Below, one piece after another: positions 7,286 to 35,347 of a DNA stretch of 36,112 bases (its first letter is position 1; every line of letters starts with the position of its first letter). This DNA is from a virus (lineage: Duplodnaviria; Caudoviricetes). The position numbers and the translations under genes are program-made. The DNA lies in IMG/VR virus record IMGVR_UViG_3300048599_000769, positions 1 to 36,112 of that record. The stretch is one strand, 5' to 3'. The notes beneath the pieces were generated by a model. It did not search any database. It saw only the letters and a program-made list of their open reading frames with translations, and was not told the origin of the DNA.

Positions 7286-10200
7286 CTATCTCCCGCCGCT
7301 ATAGCCGGCGTTGCGCATCGCATCGCGCAGGCTGTCGGCAAAGTAGCGACCAAGCTTTCCAGACTGTCCGGCATTCCGCAGCAGCGCGTCGAACTCGACC
7401 TGGGTCATGGAGTGCCCGCCCTGTGCCTCGACCTTGTGCACAAGCTCAACGCGCGCCACCCCGCCGCCCGAGGCCGACGCGCTGCCGTTGCCCTGCGACT
7501 GCTCTTGCTTGCGTCGCTGCGCTTCCTCGTCGCGTCGGCGGATGTTCTCGTCGAGCGCGCGCTGCTCGTCTGCGAGGCGGCGCAACGCCTCGTCGCCCAG
7601 GTAGGTGAACTGGTTCCGCAACGCCTCGATACGCTGCGCCTGCTCGTCGTAAGCTGAGTTCTGTTGCTGCAACGACCGCAGCAGATCGTCGGCGGCCTGC
7701 CGCTGACGGGTCAGCTCCGCGAACGCAATGCGATCGAGGCCGGCTGCGCCGTTGGCTGCGTCCGCAAACGCTTTGCTGACGTCGCCTAGCGCAAACGCGG
7801 CATCGGCGCCGCTACTGGCGACATTGTCGAGAGCGTCGGCCGCGCGCGAGCCGCTGTCCGAAAGGTCCGATGCGCTGTCGGCAGCATCGTCCGCGGCGCC
7901 CTTGAGGTTGCCGAGAGCGGCGGCGGCATCGTTCGCCGCGGCGGCCGTATCGGCGCCGGCCTGCGAACCGGCCGAGCCCATGGACTTCAACACATCCGTC
8001 AGGCCCAGCGCCGTTGCACGGGCCTGTAGCTGCGCCTCGACCTGATCGCGAACCGCCTGCGTCGACTGCGCCGCAGCGTCACGCGCGGCACGCGCGTACG
8101 CCTCGAACGCGCGCCGGATATCTTCCTGCGCCGCCAAGCCCCGGCGTGCGCCGTTTACGACAGCCTCGAATGCGTCGCGAGCGGCATCGCGCGCATCGTT
8201 CAACGACGCTTGCGATCGGATGCCGAGTTTCGAGAACTGGTCGGCCAGCGGGTCGGTTTCGGCGCGCAGCTCGCGAAGACGGTTCTTCAGCGATAGCATC
8301 GCGCGCTCGGTTTGCTCGAACCCGATGCGCCCCTCGTCGGCCGCCCCCTTCAGTGCCTTGCCGAGCGCTTCGAGATCGGCCGTCGTATTGGCGGACTTCG
8401 TCGCCGCCGTGAACGCCGCCTCGATCTGGTTGGCGGTCGCCAACGCGTTCTGCGTGATCGCCGTGAACGCCGCGACGGAATCGCGACCGGCGGCGCTCAT
8501 GCCCATGCCGAACTTGCTCGGCGCCACCCCGAGCTTTTCCAGCGACACCAGCAACGTCGTGCGCAAGATCACGTCGGCGTCGGCCGCGCTGACCCGGAAT
8601 TGCAGGAACGCACCCTGTGCCGCCGACTGGAACCGCTGGATATCCTCACCGCTCAGCTTGCGCAGCTCGCCAGCCAACCCCTCGCGAACCGCCAGACCGG
8701 CAAGCCTCGATTCTCGCGCTACGTCAACAAGGCCAAGCGCAACATCGCCGAGCGAATCCGACGCTTTGAGCTGATCGAAATCCTTAAACAGCTCGCCGAG
8801 CTGATCGGCCACGGCGGCGGCGTTGTCGGCCGCACCAGCGAATGAATCCGCGACCTGCCGAGCCGCCGGACTCACCTTGTCGCTCAATGCGCTGCCGGCG
8901 GTCTGCGCGGCCAACTGGGCCGCCTCAAGCGCTCTTGTATACTGTGCTATTTTTTCCGTTGCGCCTGCAAAGCCGGCAGCATCGTTCGCATACTTGGCCT
9001 CCGTGCGCAATGCCTGATAGAACCTGATCGCGCCAGACAACTGTTGCTGGTACTGTGCGAGTTGTTTTGCAGTCTGCTCTCGGACCTGCTCGGTCGTCAG
9101 AACCGCCGTGTCCGCAAAACGCCGATTCTCCGCCGTCATCGCGGCGATCTTTTCTGAGAGAGCCCGCTTTGCTTCGGCGGCTTCCTCGTCTGCCTGTTTA
9201 GCGGCTCGCTGCGTTTCAACGTACTCACCCAGCACGCCGACGAGTTCGACGATCAACCCCGACGTCACGGCCGCCGCGGCGGCCACCGCGGCAAGCAACG
9301 GGTTCAGTCGCAACGCGGCCGTCACGGCAACGAGGGCGCGCCCGAGAAGTCCGAAGCCAGCCGCACCCGCCGCTGCCGCCGCGCCAGACGCCGACGTCGC
9401 GGCCGTCAGCGCCACCGTCGCCGCGAGCGACGCCGCCATGCGTTGCGCCACCGCGGCGAGGCTGACCACGAAAGATGTGACCTTGATCGCCGCGTAGACC
9501 TTGCCGAGCGCGAGCAACGCGCCGCTATAGTCGTATACAAATTTTATTGCCGAGCCGATCGCCTTCGCCGTTGCGACGATTCCATTCGAGATGTTCTGCG
9601 CAACCTGCTGTAGCTTGCCGCTCTCGGCTGCCTCGCTGACCGAGGCGTTGAGTCGTTCCAGCTCGGAGCGAAAAAAGTCGAGCGCGCCGGATCGAGCGAT
9701 GTCCGCGAGAAACCGATTCGCGGTGTCGCGAATCTTTTGCAACTGGCCGTCGAGGTCGCCCAGTTCACCCTCGGCCGCGCCGGCACGCAGCTTGCCGATT
9801 TCCGTTACGAGCTGACGAATCGATTCCTTGCCGAGCTGCCCGGTTTCAGCGAGTCGCCGTAGCCGCTCCTCGCTCATGCCGGTCGCGCGCGCCAACAGCT
9901 CGAACACCGGGATGCCCTGCTGCGTCAGGCTCACGATCGCCTTCATGCTCAGCTCGCCCTTGATGTTGGCTTTGCTGAGCGTTTCGACGGTCGACGACAG
10001 CTCTTCGGTCGATTTGTCGAGTGCCTGCTGATTGTCGATCAGCGCTTGTAGCGTGCCATCGAACGGATCGAATCCGCCCTCGCGCAGCTTGATCGCCTCC
10101 TTCGCGATGTCTTCGAGCGCGTTCGGCACGCCCTTCGCGAACTCCGCCAGGCGTTCGAGCGCTATCTGCCCTTCCTCGACGCCGCCGAACGCGGTCGCCA

Positions 10201-25182: not shown

Positions 25183-25404
25183 TCATGCCGCGACCCCCGC
25201 CTCGGAGGCGCCGAAGACGTCGGGCCTCAGGTCGTTACGCGTAACCCGCCCTCCGGAAGCCTTTTCGATTGCGATGCACTTTCCCGGCGGGATGGGGCGA
25301 CGCCCCTTCACCCACTGCGAAACCGCCTGAGGCGAAATCCCCAGCTCGACAGCGAGCTTCGCCTGCCCGCCGACCACTTCGATTGCCCGCTCGATAGCGC
25401 TCAT
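25183..25404 (-). CDS. cro: Cro-like repressor (YdaS family)
   Basis: GGQAKLAVELGISPQAVSQW..LRPDVF; divergent from cI. Confidence 0.88.
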   Translation of the reverse strand: MSAIERAIEVVGGQAKLAVELGISPQAVSQWVKGRRPIPPGKCIAIEKASGGRVTRNDLRPDVFGASEAGVAA

Positions 25405-25410
25405 GCCATC

Positions 25411-25494
25411 AGTAAAGCATAGCTTTACATTTCCATCAAGCATCGGTTGCTTGCCCTCGCCCTGCGCAAAGCCTGACGATCAAGCAATGCTTGA
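25411..25494. promoter_or_regulatory. OR region: pR promoter and operators
   Basis: Palindromes TAAAGCatAGCTTTA-type at 25413-25427 and TCAAGCaatGCTTGA at 25480-25494, degenerate copy 25436-25450; minus-strand TTGATG-17bp-TTTACT. Confidence 0.7.
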
Positions 25495-26164
25495 CGAACT
25501 AACCAACGAAGAACTCGCAGCGCGGGTTCGCGCCACCCTCGACTCTCTTCCGATCTCGAGGGCGCAGTTCGCAGAGAAGGTTGGCGTGTCGGCTCAAGCC
25601 ATCACCGGCTGGCAGACGACAGGTCGAATCAGTCGACAGAAGCTGCGGGCTTTGGCCGACATTAGTGGGCGCCCACTGGAATTTTTCCTTTTGCGAGATT
25701 GGGAAAAACCAGCCCCTAGTCGCGACCCGCCAGAGATCGAATGGACCGACATTCTCGCGAGCGCTCAACAGGTATCTCTCGGAAGCGGGTCCGAAGCGCA
25801 AGAGTACGCAGAGACACATCGCCTGAAGTTCCGAGCGGATAGCCTGCGCCGGAAGGGCTTGCACGCCGACAAGCTCGTCGTCTACTACGCAAGGGGCGAC
25901 TCAATGGAGCCTCGCATTCATGCAGGTGACGCCGTGCTGTTCGATACCAGCGACACGAAACCTCGTGACGGTGACGTCTTCGTCATCGAATGGCGCGGTG
26001 AACTATTCGCAAAGCGGGCCAACGTGATTGACGGCACCGTATACTTCGAGAGCGACAATCCGAAAGGCGATCACAATTGGACAAAACCGCGTAGGATAGA
26101 CGACCCACGTCATCCAATAAACGTTCTGGGGCGCGTCAGATGGATTGGTAGCTGGGAGGGGTAG
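25487..26164 (+). CDS. cI: CI-like repressor (HTH plus S24 peptidase)
   Basis: HTH (FAEKVGVSAQAITGW); GDSMEP catalytic Ser, FAKR Lys; VLGRV. Confidence 0.9.
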   Translation: MLDELTNEELAARVRATLDSLPISRAQFAEKVGVSAQAITGWQTTGRISRQKLRALADISGRPLEFFLLRDWEKPAPSRDPPEIEWTDILASAQQVSLGSGSEAQEYAETHRLKFRADSLRRKGLHADKLVVYYARGDSMEPRIHAGDAVLFDTSDTKPRDGDVFVIEWRGELFAKRANVIDGTVYFESDNPKGDHNWTKPRRIDDPRHPINVLGRVRWIGSWEG

Positions 26165-26169
26165 CGGGC

Positions 26170-26790
26170 ATGGACAAAACTTGTCCTAAGTGCAATCACG
26201 TCAACACGTCAGCGACAGGATTGCCCTCAGAGGCATGCCCAGCCTGTGGGTTGATCTACTCCAAATTCGGAACGCGCCCGCCGCCGCGACCCGTGCAGGC
26301 CGGCGCCGAGACTCGATCCGCTCTCACTCGCATTGCTATAGTGGTTACCGGGCTCGTGCTGCTCGGCTCGGTCGGGCTGTTCGCGTGGCGCGCGTACGCC
26401 GACCGCGTTGCAAAGGTGCAGGACGCCGAAGTAGCGGCAAGAAACGCGACCGACCTCGCGAAATTGCGCGGGGACGTCGATCGCTGGCAAGACGCTGTGA
26501 AGGTCGCCGCAAGCACCAGTCGAATCGCTCTCCCCGGACCAGTCGCCACGCTACAGAGTATCCGCCGGGAAACCGCGTCACTTTCGTTAGAGGGCTGCCC
26601 CTCTCGTGCGCGAGAAAAGCTGATTGAACACATGGATCGAACAATCGATTCGATGCTTGCGTTCATGCGCAACAACGAGAGCGAGAGCACGCGCTTGACG
26701 AATGAAGCCGGGGACCTTGCCGGTGAAGCGGCAGCTTACCTCCAAGCATGCGATCACTTGCAAAGCAAGTCCGCTTCAAACACGAAATAA
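26170..26790 (+). CDS. zinc-ribbon plus single-TM membrane protein (possible lysogenic accessory gene)
   Basis: CPKC..CPACG, TM IAIVVTGLVLLGSVGLFAW, helical C-domain; 5 nt after cI. Confidence 0.7.
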   Translation: MDKTCPKCNHVNTSATGLPSEACPACGLIYSKFGTRPPPRPVQAGAETRSALTRIAIVVTGLVLLGSVGLFAWRAYADRVAKVQDAEVAARNATDLAKLRGDVDRWQDAVKVAASTSRIALPGPVATLQSIRRETASLSLEGCPSRAREKLIEHMDRTIDSMLAFMRNNESESTRLTNEAGDLAGEAAAYLQACDHLQSKSASNTK

Positions 26791-26827
26791 AGCATAGCTT
26801 GACAGCATCATAAAGCGATGCTTTACT
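26788..26827 (+). promoter_or_regulatory. OL region: pL promoter with two operators
   Basis: TAAAGCataGCTTGA 26788-26802, TAAAGCgatGCTTTA 26811-26825; TTGACA (26799-26804)-17bp-TTTACT (26822-26827). Confidence 0.75.
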
Positions 26828-26864
26828 TGCCCCGTCGCGCCACTCGGCGCGAGGGGGCAAGTCG

Positions 26865-27200
26865 ATGAGCTCGAACAGCAAGACCGATCCTGACGTCCGC
26901 CAAATCCGCGCGATCCTCGCGCGCTGGGACGCGATCGCCTATGCCCAGCTCACCGCCGAAGCGGCGCGTTTGAGCGACCTCGTCGACGAGCTCCGTGACG
27001 ACGCCAGTCGGGCCGACGCAGACGCCGAATTCTGGAACCGCTCGTTCCACGACCTCGAAGAACAGTTGGAAGAACGCGGCGGTGCCCTCGGCATCACGCC
27101 CGACTGCCGTTTCGTCGCCATCGACCAGCCCGCCGGTTCACCTATCCACGATTCCACCTTTCCCGGCCAGCCGTCCGGCTGTGCCAGCACGACCAACTAG
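26865..27200 (+). CDS. hypothetical early protein
   Basis: First ORF after pL; coiled-coil-like; GAGGGG RBS. Confidence 0.6.
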   Translation: MSSNSKTDPDVRQIRAILARWDAIAYAQLTAEAARLSDLVDELRDDASRADADAEFWNRSFHDLEEQLEERGGALGITPDCRFVAIDQPAGSPIHDSTFPGQPSGCASTTN

Positions 27201-27209
27201 GAGTTTTCC

Positions 27210-27638
27210 ATGCGCTACTACAAGATCGGCGCCGATGGCGCTCGCCTCCCCGACGACGCGACGGACTTCGTCGCGACCGAGGACACCGTTACCGGCTTGA
27301 TGTGGTCGGCGACGCTCGCCGAAGACGTCAAGCAGGCCGAACTCGAACGGATCGCTACCGCGTGCGTCGCGGCCGGCTTCGCCGACTGGCGCCCGCCGAC
27401 GGTCGACGAACTGGCGACGCTGCCCGATCGGACGCGCGACGAGCCCGCCATCGACACCAAGTATTTCCCGGATACCCGGCCGGATTGGTACTGGTCGTCG
27501 TCGGCCTGTGCGGGCGGCCCCGGCGACTGCGCGTGGCTCGTCGACTTCTACTACGGCGTCGTGCGCTGGTACCACCGGCACTATCGCGCCTGCGTGCGTG
27601 CCGTGCGCTCGGTCGCGTCGCCCGTCGCCGGTCAGTAG
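27210..27638 (+). CDS. DGR target 1, DUF1566/Lcl C-terminal domain protein (142 aa)
   Basis: DTVTGLMW, DWRPPTVDEL, WYWSSS, AWLVDF, VRAVR; AGGAG RBS; ends in VR1. Confidence 0.9.
   Translation: MRYYKIGADGARLPDDATDFVATEDTVTGLMWSATLAEDVKQAELERIATACVAAGFADWRPPTVDELATLPDRTRDEPAIDTKYFPDTRPDWYWSSSACAGGPGDCAWLVDFYYGVVRWYHRHYRACVRAVRSVASPVAGQ
27495..27638 (+). repeat. DGR variable repeat VR1
   Basis: Colinear with TR; 17 mismatches over 138 nt, all at TR adenines. Confidence 0.95.
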
Positions 27639-27692
27639 TTGGCCTCTCGGCACATTCACATGTGCACAAACGATCAATTTTCGGAGCATTCC

Positions 27693-28121
27693 ATGCGCTA
27701 CCACAAGATCAGCGCCGACGGCGCTCGCCTCCCCATCGAAGCCACGGAGTTCGTCGCGATCGAAGACACGCAGACGGGCCTCATGTGGTCGCTCACCCTC
27801 GCTCGCGAACAGACTCAGGCCAAGGCCGCCAAGGTCGCGAAAGCGTGCAAGGTCGCCGGGCATGCCGACTGGTCGCTGCCGAGCATTCAGCAGCTCGAAA
27901 CCCTGCGCGACCTGTCGCGCCACGGACCGGCCACGCCCGAGATTTTCGCCGCGGACACCCGCAACGACTGGTACTGGTCGTCGTCGGCCTATGCGGGCGG
28001 CCCCGACGACTACGCGTGGATCGTCAACTTCAGCCTCGGCGGCGTGCTCTGGAACCTCCGGCACGTTCTCGCCTGCGTGCGTGCCGTGCGCTCGGTCGCG
28101 TCGCCCGTCGCCGGTCAGTAG
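27693..28121 (+). CDS. DGR target 2, DUF1566/Lcl domain protein (142 aa)
   Basis: Paralogue of target 1 (MRYHKISADGARLP vs MRYYKIGADGARLP), same length; GGAG RBS; ends in VR2. Confidence 0.9.
   Translation: MRYHKISADGARLPIEATEFVAIEDTQTGLMWSLTLAREQTQAKAAKVAKACKVAGHADWSLPSIQQLETLRDLSRHGPATPEIFAADTRNDWYWSSSAYAGGPDDYAWIVNFSLGGVLWNLRHVLACVRAVRSVASPVAGQ
27978..28121 (+). repeat. DGR variable repeat VR2
   Basis: 14 mismatches to TR, all at adenines. Confidence 0.95.
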
Positions 28122-28144
28122 TCGGCCTATCGGATCGCTCCCTC

Positions 28145-28489
28145 ATGAGCACGACTAAGCCCGTACTGGCGATCGTCCTGTCGCGCACCGTTGAAAAGAT
28201 CGCATCCGCGATCAACGAGGCCGACATCGCGTACCACGAGGTCTACGGACTCGGCGCTGTCGACGGGGTTTTCGAGTGCGGGCAGGCAACGCACGCGAAC
28301 TTGGTCGCAGCAGAGGGAGCGATCCGACGCGCCGCAGTAATGCGGCGCGTCGAACTCCATACGCCGCGATCGATCGATCGCGAGCAGTCCGTTCACGCGC
28401 CCCGCGACGAACCCCCTCCCTGCGGCCTTCCCCCTGGGCCGTTGCCTCACTCGTCGCGGGGCGCCCTTTCTTCGGAGCACCGCACATGA
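28145..28489 (+). CDS. hypothetical protein
   Basis: MSTTKPVLAI start; stop overlaps next ATG. Confidence 0.5.
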   Translation: MSTTKPVLAIVLSRTVEKIASAINEADIAYHEVYGLGAVDGVFECGQATHANLVAAEGAIRRAAVMRRVELHTPRSIDREQSVHAPRDEPPPCGLPPGPLPHSSRGALSSEHRT

Positions 28490-28761
28490 TCAAACGCATC
28501 TTGTCGGCCCCGGCTCACCGCTTCCTGCTGTGCGCAGGTTGCGGCCGGGCGCCGCGCCACGTCGCGAGCTATGGTCGCGCGGCAAGCGAGCCGACGATGG
28601 TCCCCGGTGAGAATACCGAACGCCATCGCCTCGAATGTCCGCCGTGCGCGCGAAGCACCGGGCGTCATCTGACCATCGACGCTGCCGAGCGCGAATGGGG
28701 CGAGAAGTGGGCGCAGTTGCCGCTCAGCTTGCCGGCGCTTTCGCGTAAGGAGGCGGCATGA
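28486..28761 (+). CDS. small zinc-finger protein (Lar-like CxxC..CxxC)
   Basis: CAGCGRAP..HRLECPPC..AEREW; GGAG RBS. Confidence 0.6.
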   Translation: MIKRILSAPAHRFLLCAGCGRAPRHVASYGRAASEPTMVPGENTERHRLECPPCARSTGRHLTIDAAEREWGEKWAQLPLSLPALSRKEAA

Positions 28762-29048
28762 GCGCGCCCATGATAGCCGCCGTTGCGCTGCTGCTCGTCG
28801 CTCTGACCGTGCTCGCCAAGTTCGCTGACTTCGGCGCGAGTGCGCGCCGGCAGCGCGACGCCGCACTTGACGCGCTCCGCGAGCTGGTCGCTGCACGCAC
28901 GGCGCGAGGCTTGGATGCCGGCTCCTCCGCCCGCGAGGCGCGTGCGTGGGCGCGAGCAATCGCCGTTGTACGGGCGCACGAGCAGACGTTTGCCGCTCGA
29001 CATGCGCACATCCCGCCACCGATGGAGCGCGAGCGTCGTGCTCGGTAG
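28758..29048 (+). CDS. hypothetical protein with N-terminal TM segment
   Basis: AGGAGG RBS, ATGA overlap. Confidence 0.55.
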   Translation: MSAPMIAAVALLLVALTVLAKFADFGASARRQRDAALDALRELVAARTARGLDAGSSAREARAWARAIAVVRAHEQTFAARHAHIPPPMERERRAR

Positions 29049-29328
29049 CCATTTCCCGCCCGTGATCGGCGAGCGCATCCGCGACGCGTTCCGATCCCTG
29101 CTCCCTCGGGCGCAGGAAACCGCGTCGCCCTCCATCGATCCCGCAGCGGTCTGCACCGCAATCGCCAAGTACGCCAAGGCGATCGGCTGCACCGATTCCA
29201 ACGCGAGAGCAGCGCAGTCGTACGGCCTGCGCTGGGGCGGCAACACGCTGACGTGCATTCGCGTCGGCAAGTTGCGCGCCGAGAAGCTGCGACACCAGCA
29301 ACCCGACACGCCGCTCGACGCGGCATAA
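29038..29328 (+). CDS. hypothetical protein
   Basis: Probable GTG start overlapping the previous gene; fills operon gap. Confidence 0.4.
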   Translation: MLGSHFPPVIGERIRDAFRSLLPRAQETASPSIDPAAVCTAIAKYAKAIGCTDSNARAAQSYGLRWGGNTLTCIRVGKLRAEKLRHQQPDTPLDAA

Positions 29329-29344
29329 CGCAGAGGTTTCCACT

Positions 29345-29707
29345 ATGGGAAAGACCGTCACGCAGGTCATCGCGGAACACCGCGGAGGCGTCATCGCCAA
29401 CGCGCTGGACGAGGCGATGTCGCAGCTCGTCGAGCGTGTTCAGGAGTCCGGCAAGAAAGGCAAGCTGAACATCACCTTGCAGCTTTCGCCGCACGGTCGG
29501 GCCAACAAGGAGCTGCACGTGCGCGTGTCGTTCACGTCGACGCTGCCGCCGCCGGCCGATCACGCCGACGAATCGATCTGGTTCGGCGTCCGCGGCGAGT
29601 TGCAGCGCGACGACCCGGATCAGCGCGAGTTGTTCGGCCCCCGCGAGGTCGACGGTGCCGACGGACGCTCTCCCGCAGAACACGCCGCCGCCATCGGCGC
29701 GCGGTAA
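29345..29707 (+). CDS. conserved phage hypothetical protein (usual upstream partner of DUF2303)
   Basis: GKKGKLNITL..GELQRDDPDQREL pattern; GAGG RBS. Confidence 0.7.
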   Translation: MGKTVTQVIAEHRGGVIANALDEAMSQLVERVQESGKKGKLNITLQLSPHGRANKELHVRVSFTSTLPPPADHADESIWFGVRGELQRDDPDQRELFGPREVDGADGRSPAEHAAAIGAR

Positions 29708-29752
29708 CGGCGCGGCGCCGTCGCGCCGCATTCTCCACAAGAGGACTTGTCA

Positions 29753-29944
29753 ATGAGAATTCCGTTTTCCTTTTCGTTGCAGCAGCGCGTCGTGATTCAC
29801 GACAGCAGCCGCAACGGCGTCGTGCGCAGCCTGTGCGCCGACGATTCCGGCGCCAAGACGGCTCGCGTCGAGTACGTCGACGAGCGCGGTCGCGTCGTCA
29901 TCGAATGGTTCGACGAGGCCGCCCTCGGCCCCGTCGGCAAGTGA
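29753..29944 (+). CDS. hypothetical protein
   Basis: GAGGA RBS; SH3-like beta pattern (VEYVDERGR..EWFDE). Confidence 0.55.
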   Translation: MRIPFSFSLQQRVVIHDSSRNGVVRSLCADDSGAKTARVEYVDERGRVVIEWFDEAALGPVGK

Positions 29945-29951
29945 GGACGCC

Positions 29952-30653
29952 ATGATCGACGCCATCAACAACGTGCTGGCCCATGCCGGCATCAAGATCA
30001 TCAGCGTGGAGGCCGGTCAGGCCGCCGTCGTGCCCGACGGCTACAAGCTGGCTGATCTCGAACAGTTCCTCGCGAAGCCGCGCCGCGTGCGCGAGAAGGT
30101 GAAGCTCTACAACGTCGCCGACTTCGTCGCCTACGTGATGCGCTTCAAGACGCCGCAGTCGACGATCTTCGTGACGCCCAACCTCGACGACGTCGGCGCC
30201 GCGAAACCGCTCGCCATCGCGGTGATCGACTACCACGGCGACGAGCCGACGTGGAACGACCACACCGCCTCGCTGATCCCGACCAAGAGCCCGGCCTACG
30301 AGGCGCTCGTCGCTCTCGATAAGGAAGGGCTGATGGCGCAGGACCAGTTCGCGCTGCGCCTGCGCGACCTCGCTCGTTTCTGCGCGTCTCATCCGGCTGC
30401 GGAAATCCTCGAAATCGTGAGCACAATGACGCTCACGAGCACGGGGGCGTTCGCGAGCCTCAGCGACGACGCGAGCGGGTCGATCCGCCTGCCGGCGGAC
30501 CTCCTGTACCGCGTCCCGAAGCAAGCCGGGCAGCCGGTGCAGCTCGGCATCCGGCTGCCCGAGCGTCGCTGGCTCGAACTGGAACTCGTTCGGCAGGTCG
30601 CCGACGACGTGCGCCAGCAGACGAGCCTCATGACGATTGTCGGAACGAGGTAG
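29952..30653 (+). CDS. DUF2303/YfdQ-family protein (possibly internally deleted)
   Basis: DLEQFLAKPRR, DFVAYV, AVIDYHG..PTWNDHTA, MAQDQFA. Confidence 0.75.
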   Translation: MIDAINNVLAHAGIKIISVEAGQAAVVPDGYKLADLEQFLAKPRRVREKVKLYNVADFVAYVMRFKTPQSTIFVTPNLDDVGAAKPLAIAVIDYHGDEPTWNDHTASLIPTKSPAYEALVALDKEGLMAQDQFALRLRDLARFCASHPAAEILEIVSTMTLTSTGAFASLSDDASGSIRLPADLLYRVPKQAGQPVQLGIRLPERRWLELELVRQVADDVRQQTSLMTIVGTR

Positions 30654-30662
30654 GAACACGCC

Positions 30663-30929
30663 ATGACGAGCACCAAGAGCGTTGTCGTCTTCGGCCCGCA
30701 GGGGTGCGGGAAGTCTCGGTACGCGGGGGCATTCCGCGAGCACTTCGGCTTGACCGAGGTCGTGGACGACTGGTCACCGGGCGATGACGCGCCGCGCACG
30801 GGCGCCCTCATCCTCACGAATGCCGACTTGACGCATCAGCGCGCGCGAAACGATTGGCGGCGCGTCTATTCCTTCAACGAAGCGCTGGCGCTGATTGGCG
30901 GCGCGCGCGACAGGAAGGTGCCCGCATGA
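30663..30929 (+). CDS. small P-loop protein (88 aa)
   Basis: VVVFGPQGCGKS Walker A; VVDDW; LILTN. Confidence 0.65.
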   Translation: MTSTKSVVVFGPQGCGKSRYAGAFREHFGLTEVVDDWSPGDDAPRTGALILTNADLTHQRARNDWRRVYSFNEALALIGGARDRKVPA

Positions 30930-31114
30930 CGGCCGTCCGCATTACGCACATCGGTCCCACCGCGAGCCAACCGCTCGCGGTGTCGGTCTACCGCCCGGAC
31001 ATGCCGGCCGGCGAGCCCGGAGCGCTCATGCGCGACGTGACCGTCAAGCCCGGAGAGTCCGTACAACTCGACGTCCCCGCGCTCGCGTGCGTGGTCGTCA
31101 GTCAACAGCCTTAG
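30926..31114 (+). CDS. hypothetical protein (62 aa)
   Basis: ATGA overlap; AAGGTG RBS. Confidence 0.5.
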   Translation: MTAVRITHIGPTASQPLAVSVYRPDMPAGEPGALMRDVTVKPGESVQLDVPALACVVVSQQP

Positions 31115-31129
31115 TGGAGAACGCGCACT

Positions 31130-31678
31130 ATGGAAAACATCACCATTCGCATCACCCCGGACGCGATCGTCGTCCATGCCGAGCGCGATAGCGCCCCGGC
31201 CGTCGCGCTCGAACCCGTTTCCGCCGTCCTCGAACTCGCCGATCCGCCGACCGGCTTCGTCAAGCTCGACGTCAGCGGCAATGAACTGCCGGACGACGCG
31301 GCGGACTGGCCGTTCGTGCTCGATCGCGCGCAGGGCCTTATCTGGTCCGCCGATGACACTCGCGATTCCTGCGACTGGGCAAACGCGGACGCCGCGTGCC
31401 GCGCTGCGGCCATCTGCGGTGCGCCCGGCCGCCTGCCGACTCGCGAAGAACTGCGCGGCATCGTCAACTACGACGAGGCCAATCCGGCGGCGTACACCCG
31501 GTATTTCCGCAACGTGAAGCCGCGGGCCTACTGGTCGTCGTCGGCCTTTGCGGGCTACCCCGACGACTGCGCGTGGCTCGTCGACTTCTACTACGGCGGC
31601 GTGTACTGGGGCAACCGGCACGATCACGCCTGCGTGCGTGCCGTGCGCTCGGTCGCGTCGCCCGTCGCCGGTCAGTAG
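31130..31678 (+). CDS. DGR target 3, DUF1566/Lcl domain protein (182 aa)
   Basis: DRAQGLIW, RLPTREEL, YWSSS, VRAVR; ends in VR3; adjacent to avd-TR-RT. Confidence 0.9.
   Translation: MENITIRITPDAIVVHAERDSAPAVALEPVSAVLELADPPTGFVKLDVSGNELPDDAADWPFVLDRAQGLIWSADDTRDSCDWANADAACRAAAICGAPGRLPTREELRGIVNYDEANPAAYTRYFRNVKPRAYWSSSAFAGYPDDCAWLVDFYYGGVYWGNRHDHACVRAVRSVASPVAGQ
31535..31678 (+). repeat. DGR variable repeat VR3
   Basis: 13 mismatches to TR, all at adenines. Confidence 0.95.
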
Positions 31679-31711
31679 TCGGCCTCTCGGGAAAGGACTG
31701 ATCGACCGCCC

Positions 31712-32121
31712 ATGACCAACCAGTCGCCGCCCATCGTCCGCCTCGCCGAGCGCTTGCTCGTCGACGTCGAGGAAGCCTCAACCCGGTTCGTTCGTCGCCA
31801 TAAGTATACTTTTGGCGACAAACTCCGAAGCGTGCGTGGCGCGAACGGAGCCGAACGGCGGCGCTGGTTGCCGAGCTGGCCGTGACCTTCGACCGCTTCA
31901 AGCTCCGGCTCTTGCTCGGCAAGCGCATTCACGCCTTCCGTTCGTTCGCGGAGTTCGAGAGCTTGGCTCGGCTTTCCGTCGATCTCGGCCGCCAGATTGG
32001 CGGCTGGTATCGCCAGTTGCACCCTACGCGACAGAACCCGGCGGCCCAATCCGGCCCGCCGGGGCGTTCGCAGATACTGAGTACCCGCGCCGCCTCGCAC
32101 TCTGCCGAGGCCACGTCATGA
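31712..32121 (+). pseudogene. avd: DGR accessory variability determinant (four-helix bundle), frameshifted near 31830
   Basis: Frame 1 MTNQSPPIVRLAERLL..RFVRRHKYTFGDKLR stops at 31885; the -1 frame continues RAWRER..LGRQIGGWYR to TGA 32119-32121. Confidence 0.8.
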
Positions 32122-33593
32122 CGACGCCGCACTACCACCTACACGGATGTTCGGCCGGGTCCAAAGAGCGCGGGGAAGCGTCGTCGTCGGCCTATGCGGG
32201 CAACCCCGACGACTACGCGTGGATCGTCAACTTCAACAACGGCAACGTGAACTGGAACAACCGGCACAATCACGCCTGCGTGCGTGCCGTGCGCTCGGTC
32301 GCGTCGCCCGTCGCCGGTGAGTATCAGGGTGCATACGAGCGCGACGGCACGGTCAGCCTGCGCTCGCTCTACGCGGCATGGTCGGACGCTCGTCGCGGCA
32401 AGCGACCGAGCGTCGACCAGTTGCGTTTTGAGACGCGCGCGATCGACGAACTCGCGGTGCTGCACGAACAACTCAACGCGGGCACGTGGCGGCCATCGAC
32501 AACCACGTGTTTCGTCGCCACTCGCCCCAAGGCGCGCGAGATTCATGCGCCATCGTTTCGGGATCGGGTCGCACATCACTGGCTGGTGCCACAACTCGAA
32601 CGCCTCTATGAGCGCATGTTCGTGCACGACAGCTATGCGAATAGGCCGGGTAAGGGCACGCACGCGGCCGTCCGCCGACTCGAATCGTTCGTGCGGCAGG
32701 TCCACAGCGGACAGGGTGGCGGTCACTTTCTGCAACTTGACATTCATAACTTTTTCAATTCGATACATCGCGGCACGCTCTACGCGCTATTGAAGCGGCG
32801 CATGGTCGCGCGCGCCCTGCCGCTGCCCGCGCAGCGCGCCACGCACGCGCTGCTTAGCAGGTCGCCGACGGACTACGGCGTCGTCACGCGCGCGACACCC
32901 AGCGAACGTGCGCTCGTGCCGCTGCACAAGCGGCTCGACCATGCCCCGAAAGGCTGCGGGCTTCCGATCGGTAATCTTTCCAGTCAGTTTTTTGCGAATG
33001 TATACCTTCACGAACTGGATGCGTTCGTTAAGCACGTGCTTAAGGCCCGCAGGTACGTTCGCTATGTCGACGACTTCGTACTCGTCCACGAGAGCCGCGA
33101 CCAGCTCGACCTCTGGCGCCGCGAGATCGAGAGATTCCTTGCAAGCCGGCTGCGCCTGTCGCTCAAGCCGGACATCAAGCTTCGGCCGCTGACGGCTGGC
33201 ATCGACTTTCTAGGCTACGTCGTGCGCCCGCGCGGCACTCTCGTGCGCGATCGGGTCGTGCGCCACGCCCGCGCTGCGCTGCGCTCGTGGCAACAGGCCC
33301 ACGTCGGCATCGCCGCGATTCGCGCCACACCGGCCGCATATCGTCGCGTTGCCTCGATATGGGGCAGCTATCGCGGCCATTTCCTGCACGCCCGTGCTCG
33401 GCGTTTGCAGGCCGACTTCCACCGCCGCTTCCCGTGGCTCGCCCAGGTCGCAGAGCGACGGCTGCGATTCGACTACCGCGCCGAAGGGCGCGTCATTCAG
33501 ATTCGGAGAGCTTCATGCTCAGAACCATCGAAACTGCCGCGCAACAGCTCGCGCACGAGTTCGTCGCCGCGTTCGAGGCTTTGCGCGACGTGA
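32118..33593 (+). CDS. DGR reverse transcriptase, with TR encoded in its N-terminus
   Basis: KAREIHAPSFRDRVAHH, GKGTH, LDIHNFF, GLPIGNLSSQFFANVYL (DGR-type SQ), YVRYVDDF, GIDFLGY; ATG overlaps avd TGA. Confidence 0.95.
   Translation: MTTPHYHLHGCSAGSKERGEASSSAYAGNPDDYAWIVNFNNGNVNWNNRHNHACVRAVRSVASPVAGEYQGAYERDGTVSLRSLYAAWSDARRGKRPSVDQLRFETRAIDELAVLHEQLNAGTWRPSTTTCFVATRPKAREIHAPSFRDRVAHHWLVPQLERLYERMFVHDSYANRPGKGTHAAVRRLESFVRQVHSGQGGGHFLQLDIHNFFNSIHRGTLYALLKRRMVARALPLPAQRATHALLSRSPTDYGVVTRATPSERALVPLHKRLDHAPKGCGLPIGNLSSQFFANVYLHELDAFVKHVLKARRYVRYVDDFVLVHESRDQLDLWRREIERFLASRLRLSLKPDIKLRPLTAGIDFLGYVVRPRGTLVRDRVVRHARAALRSWQQAHVGIAAIRATPAAYRRVASIWGSYRGHFLHARARRLQADFHRRFPWLAQVAERRLRFDYRAEGRVIQIRRASCSEPSKLPRNSSRTSSSPRSRLCAT
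32181..32318 (+). ncRNA. DGR template repeat (TR)
   Basis: AAC-rich master copy of VR1-3 with 25 adenines; diverges at 3' end (ggtGAGTAT vs ggtCAGTAG), consistent with IMH* vs IMH. Confidence 0.93.
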
Positions 33594-33670
33594 TCGGCGC
33601 GGCTGCTGCGCTGCTCGACGCGCGAGTTCAGGCGGCGCGCCGCAATTACCTGTGCGCGAGGCTGGCATGA
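33515..33670 (+). CDS. hypothetical protein (51 aa)
   Basis: GGAG RBS, ATG 33515; overlaps RT 3' end; stop overlaps next ATG. Confidence 0.45.
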   Translation: MLRTIETAAQQLAHEFVAAFEALRDVIGAAAALLDARVQAARRNYLCARLA

Positions 33671-33852
33671 CCCGCGATTGGAATCGCGAGCGCATCATCC
33701 TGCGCCGCCACGCCGAGGGCGAAACCCTCGTGTCGATCGCGAAAGACTTCGGCCTCACTCGCGAGCGCGTGCGGCAAATCGTCAAGCGAAACCAAACTGC
33801 CGCGCCGGGCGACAGCTCTCCGGCCGCAGGCACACCTGCGCCGAGGAAATGA
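33667..33852 (+). CDS. small HTH protein (sigma-70 region 4-like)
   Basis: GETLVSIAKDFGLTRERVRQI. Confidence 0.7.
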   Translation: MTRDWNRERIILRRHAEGETLVSIAKDFGLTRERVRQIVKRNQTAAPGDSSPAAGTPAPRK

Positions 33853-34064
33853 CTATGCGCGGCTCGATCCTCGAAACCGCCGACCTGCTCGCCATCACCG
33901 GGTACGCGCGCGCGGGTGATGCTGCGCGCTGCCTGCGTTCGCAAGGCATCCACGTGTTCGAGGGCAAGGACGGCCCGTGGACCACGGTCGAACTCATGAA
34001 CGCCGCGGGCGGCCTCCGAGCCACCGCGAGCAACGATGCGTACAACCCGGACGACATGGGATGA
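33849..34064 (+). CDS. putative excisionase (DUF4224-like)
   Basis: DLLAITGY..RCLRSQGI..GPWTT; stop overlaps integrase start. Confidence 0.65.
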   Translation: MTMRGSILETADLLAITGYARAGDAARCLRSQGIHVFEGKDGPWTTVELMNAAGGLRATASNDAYNPDDMG

Positions 34065-35203
34065 CCCGAGGCCGCAAGCGCCAGCACGACCCCACCATAC
34101 CGGCCCACATCGATCAGAATGCGCTGCCGCGCGGCGTCTACTGGGACCGAAGCGGCTCCGGCCACTGGTATGCATTTGAAACGGGGCCGGACGGAAAGCG
34201 CCTGCGCCGTAAGATTGCGAGCGCATCAGCTCGAGTATCTGAGCTACACGCACTGATAGAGGATCGGGCCGGCGTCGACCGCGAGAGCTTGGCGTGGCTG
34301 CTAGATCAGTACCACGGCAGCCAAAAGTTCAAAGCGCAATCACCGCGCACCCAGCGCGACCGAAAGGGCTACCGCAAAGTCGTACTGGCCTACCAGACGC
34401 GCATAGGGCCACTTGGCGGACTGGCACATCGACGCCTGACCACCGCAAGTATACAACGCATCATTGACAACATTGCAGAGTCACACCCGACGAAGGCGAA
34501 TCACATCCATCGCTATCTGCGTCTGGTGTTCAGTTGGGGCATTCGTCGGGGTCACTGCGCGGCAAACCCCGCAAGGGGCGTCGAGCAGGCAAAGGAGCGG
34601 CGGCAGCGAGCCGTGCCGACCGTCGAGACAATGGAGCGCGTCATCGCCTTTGCACGCGTCCGGGGCTGCCTCAAGGCGCACACCAAAGGTTCCGTCTCGC
34701 CCTACCTCTGGTTCGCCTGCGAATTGGCGTACCTTTGCCGGCTTCGCGGCGTAGAGCTGTTTTCGCTCACCGATGCGTGTGAAACGTCGACGGGACTTGC
34801 GGTCGAGCGCGCGAAGGGCTCGAGGGGGAACGTCGTCAGGTGGACGCCACGACTACGCGCCGCTTGGGATGCTGCGCTCGCCTATCGAGCTCGCGTTGTG
34901 CCGGCATCGGCGCCCGTTCCGATCGACCCCGAGAAGCGCGGCGTCCTCGTGACCGAGAGCGGCAGCCCGCTGGCGCAGTCCAGCTTCGAGAGCGCATGGC
35001 AACGGATGATTCTCGCGGCCATCAGCGCGGGCATCATCACGCCCGAGCAGCGGTTCGCGCCGCACGCGTTCAAGCACCGTGGGATCACAGACACGCCCGG
35101 CAATCGCGCCGACAAGCAGCAGGCGAGCGGGCACAAAAGCGCCTCGATGCTTGACATCTACGACCACGAGATACCGACCGTCGATCCAGCCGGCGAGTCC
35201 TAA
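34061..35203 (+). CDS. int: tyrosine integrase
   Basis: LCRLRGVE (catalytic R), RAKGS, HAFKHRG, SGH..IY; points toward tRNA 3' end. Confidence 0.9.
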   Translation: MTRGRKRQHDPTIPAHIDQNALPRGVYWDRSGSGHWYAFETGPDGKRLRRKIASASARVSELHALIEDRAGVDRESLAWLLDQYHGSQKFKAQSPRTQRDRKGYRKVVLAYQTRIGPLGGLAHRRLTTASIQRIIDNIAESHPTKANHIHRYLRLVFSWGIRRGHCAANPARGVEQAKERRQRAVPTVETMERVIAFARVRGCLKAHTKGSVSPYLWFACELAYLCRLRGVELFSLTDACETSTGLAVERAKGSRGNVVRWTPRLRAAWDAALAYRARVVPASAPVPIDPEKRGVLVTESGSPLAQSSFESAWQRMILAAISAGIITPEQRFAPHAFKHRGITDTPGNRADKQQASGHKSASMLDIYDHEIPTVDPAGES

Positions 35204-35271: not shown

Positions 35272-35347
35272 TGGTGGGCCGTGATGGACTCGAACCATCG
35301 ACCAACGGATTAAAAGTCCGCTGCTCTACCAACTGAGCTAACGGCCC
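35272..35347 (-). tRNA. tRNA-Lys (UUU); probable integration site
   Basis: 76 nt GGGCCGTTAGCTCAGTTGGTAGAGC..CTTTTAA..GGTTCGAGTCC..CCA. Confidence 0.97.

Follow-up and report, generated by a model that had tools for sequence, protein, structure and literature searches.

A three-target diversity-generating retroelement in a lambdoid prophage, with small early-region targets and a predicted permuted RNA

Phage diversity-generating retroelements (DGRs) are usually taught as tropism switches. Here we describe a DGR in a 36,112-nucleotide (nt) stretch of a virus of the Caudoviricetes (IMG/VR record IMGVR_UViG_3300048599_000769, positions 1 to 36,112; hereafter the window). It comprises one template repeat (TR), three variable repeats (VRs) lying in three short target genes, an avd gene and a reverse transcriptase (RT) gene:

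27210..27638, plus strand: target 1, 142 amino acids, stand-alone Lcl_C / CLec2 protein (PF07603, E = 7e-25)
27494..27632, plus strand: VR1, 17 A-to-N mismatches against TR (alignment)
27693..28121, plus strand: target 2, 142 amino acids, tandem paralogue of target 1 with 62% identity (PF07603, E = 3.5e-21)
27977..28115, plus strand: VR2, 14 A-to-N mismatches against TR (alignment)
31130..31678, plus strand: target 3, 182 amino acids (PF07603, E = 1.6e-23)
31534..31672, plus strand: VR3, 13 A-to-N mismatches against TR (alignment)
31712..32121, plus strand: avd, with a frameshift in the window (E = 2e-36 against a profile built from 88 avd genes of the family, this one among them)
32118..33593, plus strand: DGR RT, 491 amino acids, its ATG overlapping the avd stop (PF00078; phrog_1423, E = 6e-97)
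32180..32318, plus strand: TR, 139 nt, with 25 adenines and 16 variable codons (repeat search and alignment)

The locus is a DGR. An original prediction, made from the sequence alone, had counted 17, 14 and 13 mismatches, all at TR adenines, and our computed alignment reproduces this exactly: 44/44 mismatches (22 to G, 15 to T and 7 to C) lie at TR adenines and 0/44 elsewhere, which under random placement would have a chance of (25/139)^44 = 1.6e-33. The RT motifs YVDD and GNLSSQ are intact, and the TR gives access to ~6e14 protein variants with no route to a stop codon. A repeat search across the whole window returned only four full copies, TR and the three VRs, with no further VR; as predicted, no visible tail gene carries one, the window's left end lying within the tail module. 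The three targets, at 142, 142 and 182 amino acids, fit their earlier description as stand-alone DUF1566/Lcl-type proteins, with PF07603 Lcl_C (DUF1566) as the sole domain match. Domain match and structural model both place the VR at the C terminus of a C-type lectin fold. In the AlphaFold model of target 3 (predicted local distance difference test score, pLDDT, 87.5), an N-terminal β-hairpin (residues 3-18) is followed by a loose, flexible linker and the C-type lectin domain, and the closest solved fold is the Legionella Lcl-CTD (PDB 8q4e; Foldseek E = 2.5e-4, profile E = 6e-4). A metagenome scan for near-identical copies of target 3 returned nothing.

The RT searches yielded 80 loci from viral and 80 from genomic sequences, and ~640 stretches of the viral collection matched the RT patterns. 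Of these 160 loci plus the window, 19 showed no TR/VR pair within the sequence available and 6 were removed as duplicates, leaving a family of 91 non-redundant loci (RT identity at least 52%, window included) and an outgroup of 45. The initiation of mutagenic homing sequence (IMH) reads GT-CAG in ~97% of 190 family VRs, and its TR counterpart (IMH*) reads GT-GAG in 91/91 TRs. Every VR in the window is followed by CAG-stop and a conserved pyrimidine-rich tag without a hairpin (27633-27650, 28116-28133 and 31673-31690); the family consensus is CAG-stop, pyrimidine-rich, with a period of ~8 nt, and this hairpin-free tag is a candidate target-recognition signal. Three other candidate features were rejected. 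Hairpins after the IMH did not exceed shuffles (z <= -2 in 10/190 family VRs, mean z 0.18; window z -1.3, -1.4 and +1.5). A direct repeat between the TR start and the post-VR sequence, 10 nt long in the window, reached at least 7 nt in 22/190 family VRs against 11% in shuffles. Finally, an excess of Tyr, Gly and Ser and a deficit of Cys, Arg and Ile at AAY codons (chi-square 990) was dropped as proof of selection because exported outgroup targets show the same bias and a passage of PMC12875486 reports an intrinsic AAC bias of the RT.

With its avd-TR-RT order and DUF1566-only targets, the window has architecture B1, CLec2, category d of Wu 2018. In the passages describing this type (PMC5758913, PMC6602519), exemplified by the DGR of Stenotrophomonas sp. 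SKA14, it shares with the window the avd-TR-RT core, short DUF1566-only targets that are several and non-adjacent, and the absence of a hairpin after the IMH, such hairpins being seen in only 34% of DGRs; the same passages place no such targets in phage early operons and describe no RNA topology. The layout is less new than the original prediction implied, as short DUF1566-only targets, multiple and non-adjacent targets, and the early-region targets of phage Magia are already in print.

The avd gene of the window is 31 nt shorter at 31826/31827 than in a contig of run X1, whose longer form gives one frame; its pieces have no match in Pfam, PHROG or NCBIfam, and the avd genes of relatives match phrog_3206. 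The DUF2303 gene at 29952-30653 is 114 nt shorter than in the X1 contig, with the break at 30490/30491. Because that contig is identical to the window over several kb and holds both extra stretches, the two gaps are either assembly errors or recent deletions. An X1 contig anchored in target 1 carries 16 differences over 27400-27610, the 14 listed all being VR1 TR-adenine sites, and is nearly identical to target 1 upstream of VR1. These variants, seen in contigs only, point to recent DGR activity in the lineage. Against present activity stand the avd frameshift and run X2, which holds VR2 and part of VR3 unchanged (again in contigs only) and could be the source or stem from the same lineage; the window's copy may be inactive. 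Runs X3, X4 and X5 hold only small shares of the window and offer no evidence on habitat. In the stronger form of this argument the copy is a frozen relic, with avd truly broken in the strain and the VRs recording past activity only. The two internal deletions and the X2 identity favour such a relic, and we give it a substantial minority share of belief, but the presence of both missing stretches in X1 fits assembly error or very recent loss, and no VR shows any non-A drift.

The RNA between avd and TR, together with the TR 3′ flank, has conserved base-pairing in the family:

32028..32071, plus strand: covarying long stem-loop interrupted by an internal loop, immediately 5′ of the primer strand; a candidate for binding Avd (covariation)
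32073..32081, plus strand: predicted primer strand, of which 32073-32078 pairs with 32320-32325 (covariation and geometric scan)
32084..32174, plus strand: multi-stem junction of P1 (32084-32090:32168-32174, predicted cDNA stop), P2 (32092-32111) and P3 (32126-32155) (covariation)
32317..32329, plus strand: IMH* and predicted primer-binding site (alignment and covariation)

A scan for long-range covariation connected position 32075 with 32323 (97% paired, 41 double changes in 82 loci). The helix to which they belong, 32073-32078:32320-32325, has a perfect upstream strand in 74/91 loci, always followed by GAG, and a perfect downstream one in 0/91; most of the remaining 17 loci keep the helix with a G:U pair. 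Across 90 anchored loci its active-site end is invariant (G/G, A:U with 3 G:U, G/G, U:A, C:G, A:U), and the one variable pair is paired in 87/90 loci, compared with a mean of 40 and a maximum of 57 in 10,000 shuffles; its types AT, CG, TA, TG and GC recur on different branches of a quick RT tree. Folded by itself, the window sequence forms this helix with a probability of 0.92-0.94. In the resulting geometry A32080, paired with U32318, is the predicted priming nucleotide and G32081 faces G32317, the predicted first copied base; we consider priming from upstream highly probable.

The junction, aligned over the avd end and leader of the family loci, has 93% of cells paired and 108 double changes, equalled in 0/500 shuffles, and slid controls gave 26-43%; the stem-loop at 32028-32071 covaries as well. 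P1 starts 3 nt after the primer end and closes 5 nt before TR, and in the family consensus CAA comes directly after P2 (78, 87 and 90%). VR 5′ ends cross P1 in 0/164 cases and lie 3-9 nt from it in 130/164. The junction has no match in Rfam at E <= 1 in the region 26700-33700, RF03018 and RF03022 included. Within it, a nearly invariant unpaired stretch at 32159-32166 (AAG in 100% of 82 loci) is a candidate RT contact.

The same series of elements is found in phage BPP-1. According to the text of Handa et al. (bioRxiv 10.1101/2023.10.23.563531), the BPP-1 primer Sp A56 pairs with TR U118, G57 lies opposite the first copied base G117, and a stop duplex, a short hairpin and adenosines come next, an order whose sequence we verified. 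Both systems have A-specific retrohoming, a stem-loop, a primer ending in A then G, a stop strand, a short hairpin, adenosines and G as the first template base. They differ in that BPP-1 has a tail receptor-binding target and all of its RNA elements in a 140-nt spacer 3′ of TR, whereas in the window the elements lie 5′ of TR inside avd and the RT coding sequence directly follows TR. With no late-module tail receptor-binding target, no RF03022 match (BPP-1 itself matches) and no GC-rich hairpin after the IMH, the window is not of the BPP-1 type. Its DGR RNA would instead be a circular permutation of the BPP-1 RNA, with the elements placed 5′ of TR within the avd end; in a DGR of catalogued type, this rearrangement appears to be the new part and is well supported by sequence comparison. 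Our literature search found no description of an upstream or permuted DGR primer, although the supplements of Handa et al. (Table S3, Fig. S18), Wu (Table S1) and Weinberg may already record the helix or the link between RT-15 and DGRs.

The Rfam motif RT-15 (RF03018) is a multi-stem RNA of related phage DGRs, where it is placed between avd and TR. In Cruim01 and QDWS (L164:2187-2379; L165:2227-2409) it occupies this position and its end meets the TR start, and its conserved unpaired stretch pairs with the TR 3′ end in 4/4 isolates examined. The window resembles it in position and geometry but has no RF03018 sequence match, and the Rfam model is without the long-range helix. The main text of Weinberg 2017 (PMC5737381) only speculates that other RT motifs serve DGRs. 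The retron RT model scores the window RT at 51.5 bits, far below its cut-off of 235. Only the topology of the upstream branching base in retrons resembles the predicted RNA of the window.

A geometric scan, which as a control recovered the published BPP-1 primer downstream and nothing upstream, gave upstream matches in 4/4 other isolated phages, 87/91 family loci and 31/43 outgroup loci; downstream, the outgroup gave 6/43, with 9 expected from shuffles. Several upstream matches have the priming pair changed to U:A. The upstream primer geometry, here with U:A as the priming pair, extends to cellular CLec2 DGRs whose targets are exported (L114, L128, L136, L143, L145, L148, L158, L159 and L160), which suggests an RNA type common to the whole lineage.

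Other results weigh against the predicted RNA. Single-sequence folding gives the A32080:U32318 pair a probability of only 0.16 and P1 one of 0.18, and the pairs at the priming end never vary within the family. The geometric scan has a high background in this GC-rich family (46/91 loci downstream against 34 expected), and Cruim01 also has downstream matches. A duplex-energy scan for the primer, discarded after it missed the BPP-1 control, did not separate upstream from downstream (39/91). The folding z-score of the junction alone (-0.24) was likewise discarded. The long-range helix might instead be a cPRT Stop duplex or a feature of mRNA folding, with priming taking place in trans or farther downstream, within the RT coding region; conserved upstream-downstream duplexes are described as stop elements, in 207/278 DGRs, in the text of Handa et al., and the duplex-energy test is uninformative on the point. 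We nonetheless judge this unlikely. The downstream strand begins at the last TR base, the place of primer binding in BPP-1, while the upstream strand lies ~100 nt from TR; the VR 5′ boundary is marked by a separate helix, P1; no locus has a perfect partner downstream; and the BPP-1 geometry recurs, with a primer ending in A-G and G as the first base.

The module and TR are also traversed by the first ~70 codons of the RT gene, the RT match itself starting 22 nt after TR; the original prediction had noticed neither this inclusion of TR nor the avd frameshift. The RT frame is open through TR in 91/91 family loci and in 21/43 of the outgroup. An ATG precedes TR in 90/91 family loci, with no start codon between TR and the RT core in 85/91, and the RT ATG is coupled to the stop of a long avd-type frame in 88/91 family and 3/43 outgroup loci. 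TR may double as a translated leader of the RT; a TR overlapping the annotated RT open reading frame (ORF) is a class described in the published account of DiGReF, as group 3. At two loci (L001:9827-10002 and L012:9833-10008) the RT leader runs through TR in another reading frame, and length changes on either side of TR compensate for the shift. Because the ATG-to-RT frame survives at these loci, it is apparently translation that is conserved rather than the peptide read from TR. An AlphaFold prediction of the leader-RT protein made without an alignment was unusable (pLDDT 35).

The DGR sits in the early region of a prophage, bounded by the following features:

25403..26164, plus strand: CI-like repressor, helix-turn-helix and S24 peptidase (PF00717, phrog_4)
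26788..26825, plus strand: two operator-like palindromes (26788-26802 and 26811-26825) around a perfect TTGACA at 26799-26804 (palindrome search)
33849..35203, plus strand: excisionase and integrase at the operon's end, beside tRNA-Lys (35272-35347) and host queC (gene matches)

The window holds most of a Tahibacter-like lambdoid prophage. Its minus strand carries the tail, head, terminase, helicase, primase and cro genes, and its plus strand CI, the targets, avd, TR, RT, excisionase and integrase, ending at tRNA-Lys and queC, whose product is 95% identical to QueC of Tahibacter soli. The tRNA-Lys marks the right prophage end; no repeated att core of at least 12 nt was found within the window, so the left end lies outside it, and since the window, which is the whole of its record, begins in the tail module and has no second att copy, part of the prophage may be missing. 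The 15-bp palindrome has two copies between cro and CI (25413 and 25480) and two ahead of the target operon, and the window holds 5 matches against 0.2 expected (0/100 shuffles). Together with the TTGACA, these palindromes suggest a likely CI-repressed early promoter of the target operon; a scan for sigma-70 promoters found no site reaching threshold. Between CI and these operators lies an ORF of 206 amino acids (26170-26790) with zinc-ribbon-like CxxC pairs, one transmembrane stretch and a coiled coil; it has no family match, is probably co-expressed with CI and is a candidate exclusion or defence gene. A relative in run X1 has the DGR region in common with the window but differs upstream of target 1 (window 26832-27139) by 35 differences over 294 nt and a 204-nt insert, a mosaic exchange of the immunity side.

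Across the family the targets are similarly small and numerous. Among 76 loci with 9 kb of upstream sequence, 55 have two targets, 15 have three, five have one and one has four; 182/184 scored targets are at most 250 amino acids long (median 145, with starts chosen by script). A strongly hydrophobic N-terminal stretch occurs in 3/184 family targets against 45/66 in the outgroup of related cellular DGRs. Although the Legionella Lcl-CTD and LdtA-type cellular CLec2 targets are closest in fold, they are exported surface proteins, unlike the signal-less phage targets. No cysteine pair is conserved among family targets. About one-third have an N-terminal extension, mostly a β-hairpin and in some a helical piece, which could give avidity; in the long targets of L001, L003, L028, L045, L052, L073, L080 and L088, an amphipathic helical extension replaces the hairpin. 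A target-profile search for longer fusions gave only one multi-Lcl protein with a signal-like N terminus, which is weak evidence.

The setting recurs too. In a neighbour scan covering 138/240 called ORFs from 10 relatives, the neighbours were CI/Cro, RecE/RecT/Erf, SSB, methylases and integrase. Among 38 whole virus records (25 at least 90% complete; one partial TR match left out), each of the 86 target-type matches shares its strand with TR and is no more than 7,445 nt away from it, 6 matches being reached across the contig ends, and no record (38/38) has an Lcl match outside the early operon. The layout is shared by the isolated phages Magia, Haboob, Cruim01 and QDWS. In one family member a target gene follows the RT (L059:11364-11801). 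In the temperate Burkholderia phage Magia (MT701587; PMC7883833), whose short lectin-fold targets were named as genes 47 and 57, the stretch that holds the targets runs from the immunity repressor to the integrase and also carries RecT and nuclease genes, with target-avd-TR-RT order, one non-adjacent target and the same upstream primer geometry; unlike in the window, the RT (only 42% identical) has an annotated start that is not coupled to the avd stop, and RT-15 is carried by the sister group. The paper gives no target function and no RNA model. Magia gene 46 (L161:7909-8373), annotated as hypothetical, holds a third VR with 11 A-mismatches (8263-8353); the paper names genes 47 and 57 only.

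The position between CI and xis/int, the palindromes, the neighbours, the 38/38 records and the non-hydrophobic N termini together make a non-structural, early character well supported, and the targets are very probably not virion components. From these features we infer early lytic expression and an intracellular protein ligand, and an intracellular role is likely. The original prediction had proposed intracellular early binders acting in anti-defence, host takeover or phage competition; operon position, operators and whole records uphold the non-structural and early part, the specific functions standing as candidates. Our reading, to which we assign a probability of about 0.6, is that a three-target DGR has rewritten the tips of small, signal-less, lectin-fold early proteins that serve as changeable intracellular binders, and has done so through a permuted RNA. 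It takes as established the TR, the three VRs, the adenine-only mismatches, the intact RT motifs, the gene position and the conserved base-pairing.

On induction or infection, the CI-repressed operon would transcribe targets, avd, TR and RT together. The RNA would fold into the stem-loop at 32028-32071, the primer strand at 32073-32081, the stop helix P1, a small hairpin followed by AA, and TR, whose 3′ flank would pair back to the primer strand. RT and Avd would then extend A32080 (from a 2′-OH branch, by analogy to BPP-1 Sp A56, or from a nick), starting opposite G32317 and stopping at P1, 5 nt before TR. The A-mutated cDNA would replace the VR of genes ending in the IMH GT-CAG-stop and pyrimidine tag, up to 4.7 kb away, and selection would favour variants that bind a changeable ligand inside the cell, with host defence or regulatory proteins the most plausible candidates. 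That the targets bind changeable host proteins as host-defence or host-takeover ligands, defence proteins first, falls a little short of an even chance in our estimation; our literature search found no paper assigning a function to these short DUF1566-type targets.

Several observations count against an early intracellular role. Lcl_C folds occur also in tail fibres and virion proteins (ranks 3, 22 and 49 of the search), and the closest solved structure, 8q4e, is an extracellular adhesin domain. In relatives, two ORFs downstream of RT have a terminase-labelled best match over their first 200 residues, one RecE protein has a weak virion-protein match and one opposite-strand gene has an endolysin-like match. 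The targets might act against rival phages or mobile elements, by exclusion or sensing, either intracellularly or once freed by lysis. A repertoire of this kind would be well served by several paralogues whose VRs are independent, and cytoplasmic DGR CLec sensors have been proposed for conflict systems in cellular DGRs, in the part of Dore 2024 that treats them. This is improbable, however, in an operon that looks CI-repressed, from which lysogens should therefore not express the targets, and no effector domain is fused to or encoded beside them. Less probable still is a role of the targets as accessory components of the virion, such as capsid or tail decoration or auxiliary adhesins, produced early for later loading, with the DGR tuning surface binding as in BPP-1: phage CLec DGR targets are mostly structural in the passages of the Roux 2020 preprint and the tentaclin paper, Lcl_C folds are present in tail proteins and target 3 has an N-terminal hairpin that could dock on a particle, but the operon lies on the strand opposite to all late genes and behind operator-like sites, its position is the same in phages of unrelated hosts and morphologies, including the myophage Magia, and 0/38 records have an Lcl match in the late module.

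The RNA model names the priming base, first copied base and stop helix to the nucleotide and gives the orphan Rfam motif RT-15 a job. It may also account for some of the 71/278 DGRs that lack downstream elements in the text of Handa et al., and a compact, multi-target, hairpin-free DGR would be of use for directed-evolution tools. Cultured members exist (Magia, Haboob, Cruim01 and QDWS), and the question of intracellular target binding is therefore testable now. On our reading of the window, a family of hundreds of temperate phages would hypermutate early proteins instead of tail tropism proteins. More tentatively, the CLec2/DUF1566 DGR lineage, phage and cellular, may use a permuted RNA in which grip for Avd, primer and stop all come from the coding end of avd and TR is a translated leader of the RT, and in proteobacterial lambdoid prophages an antibody-like set of two to four small intracellular binders made on induction would neutralise variable host defence, an adaptive form of counter-defence.

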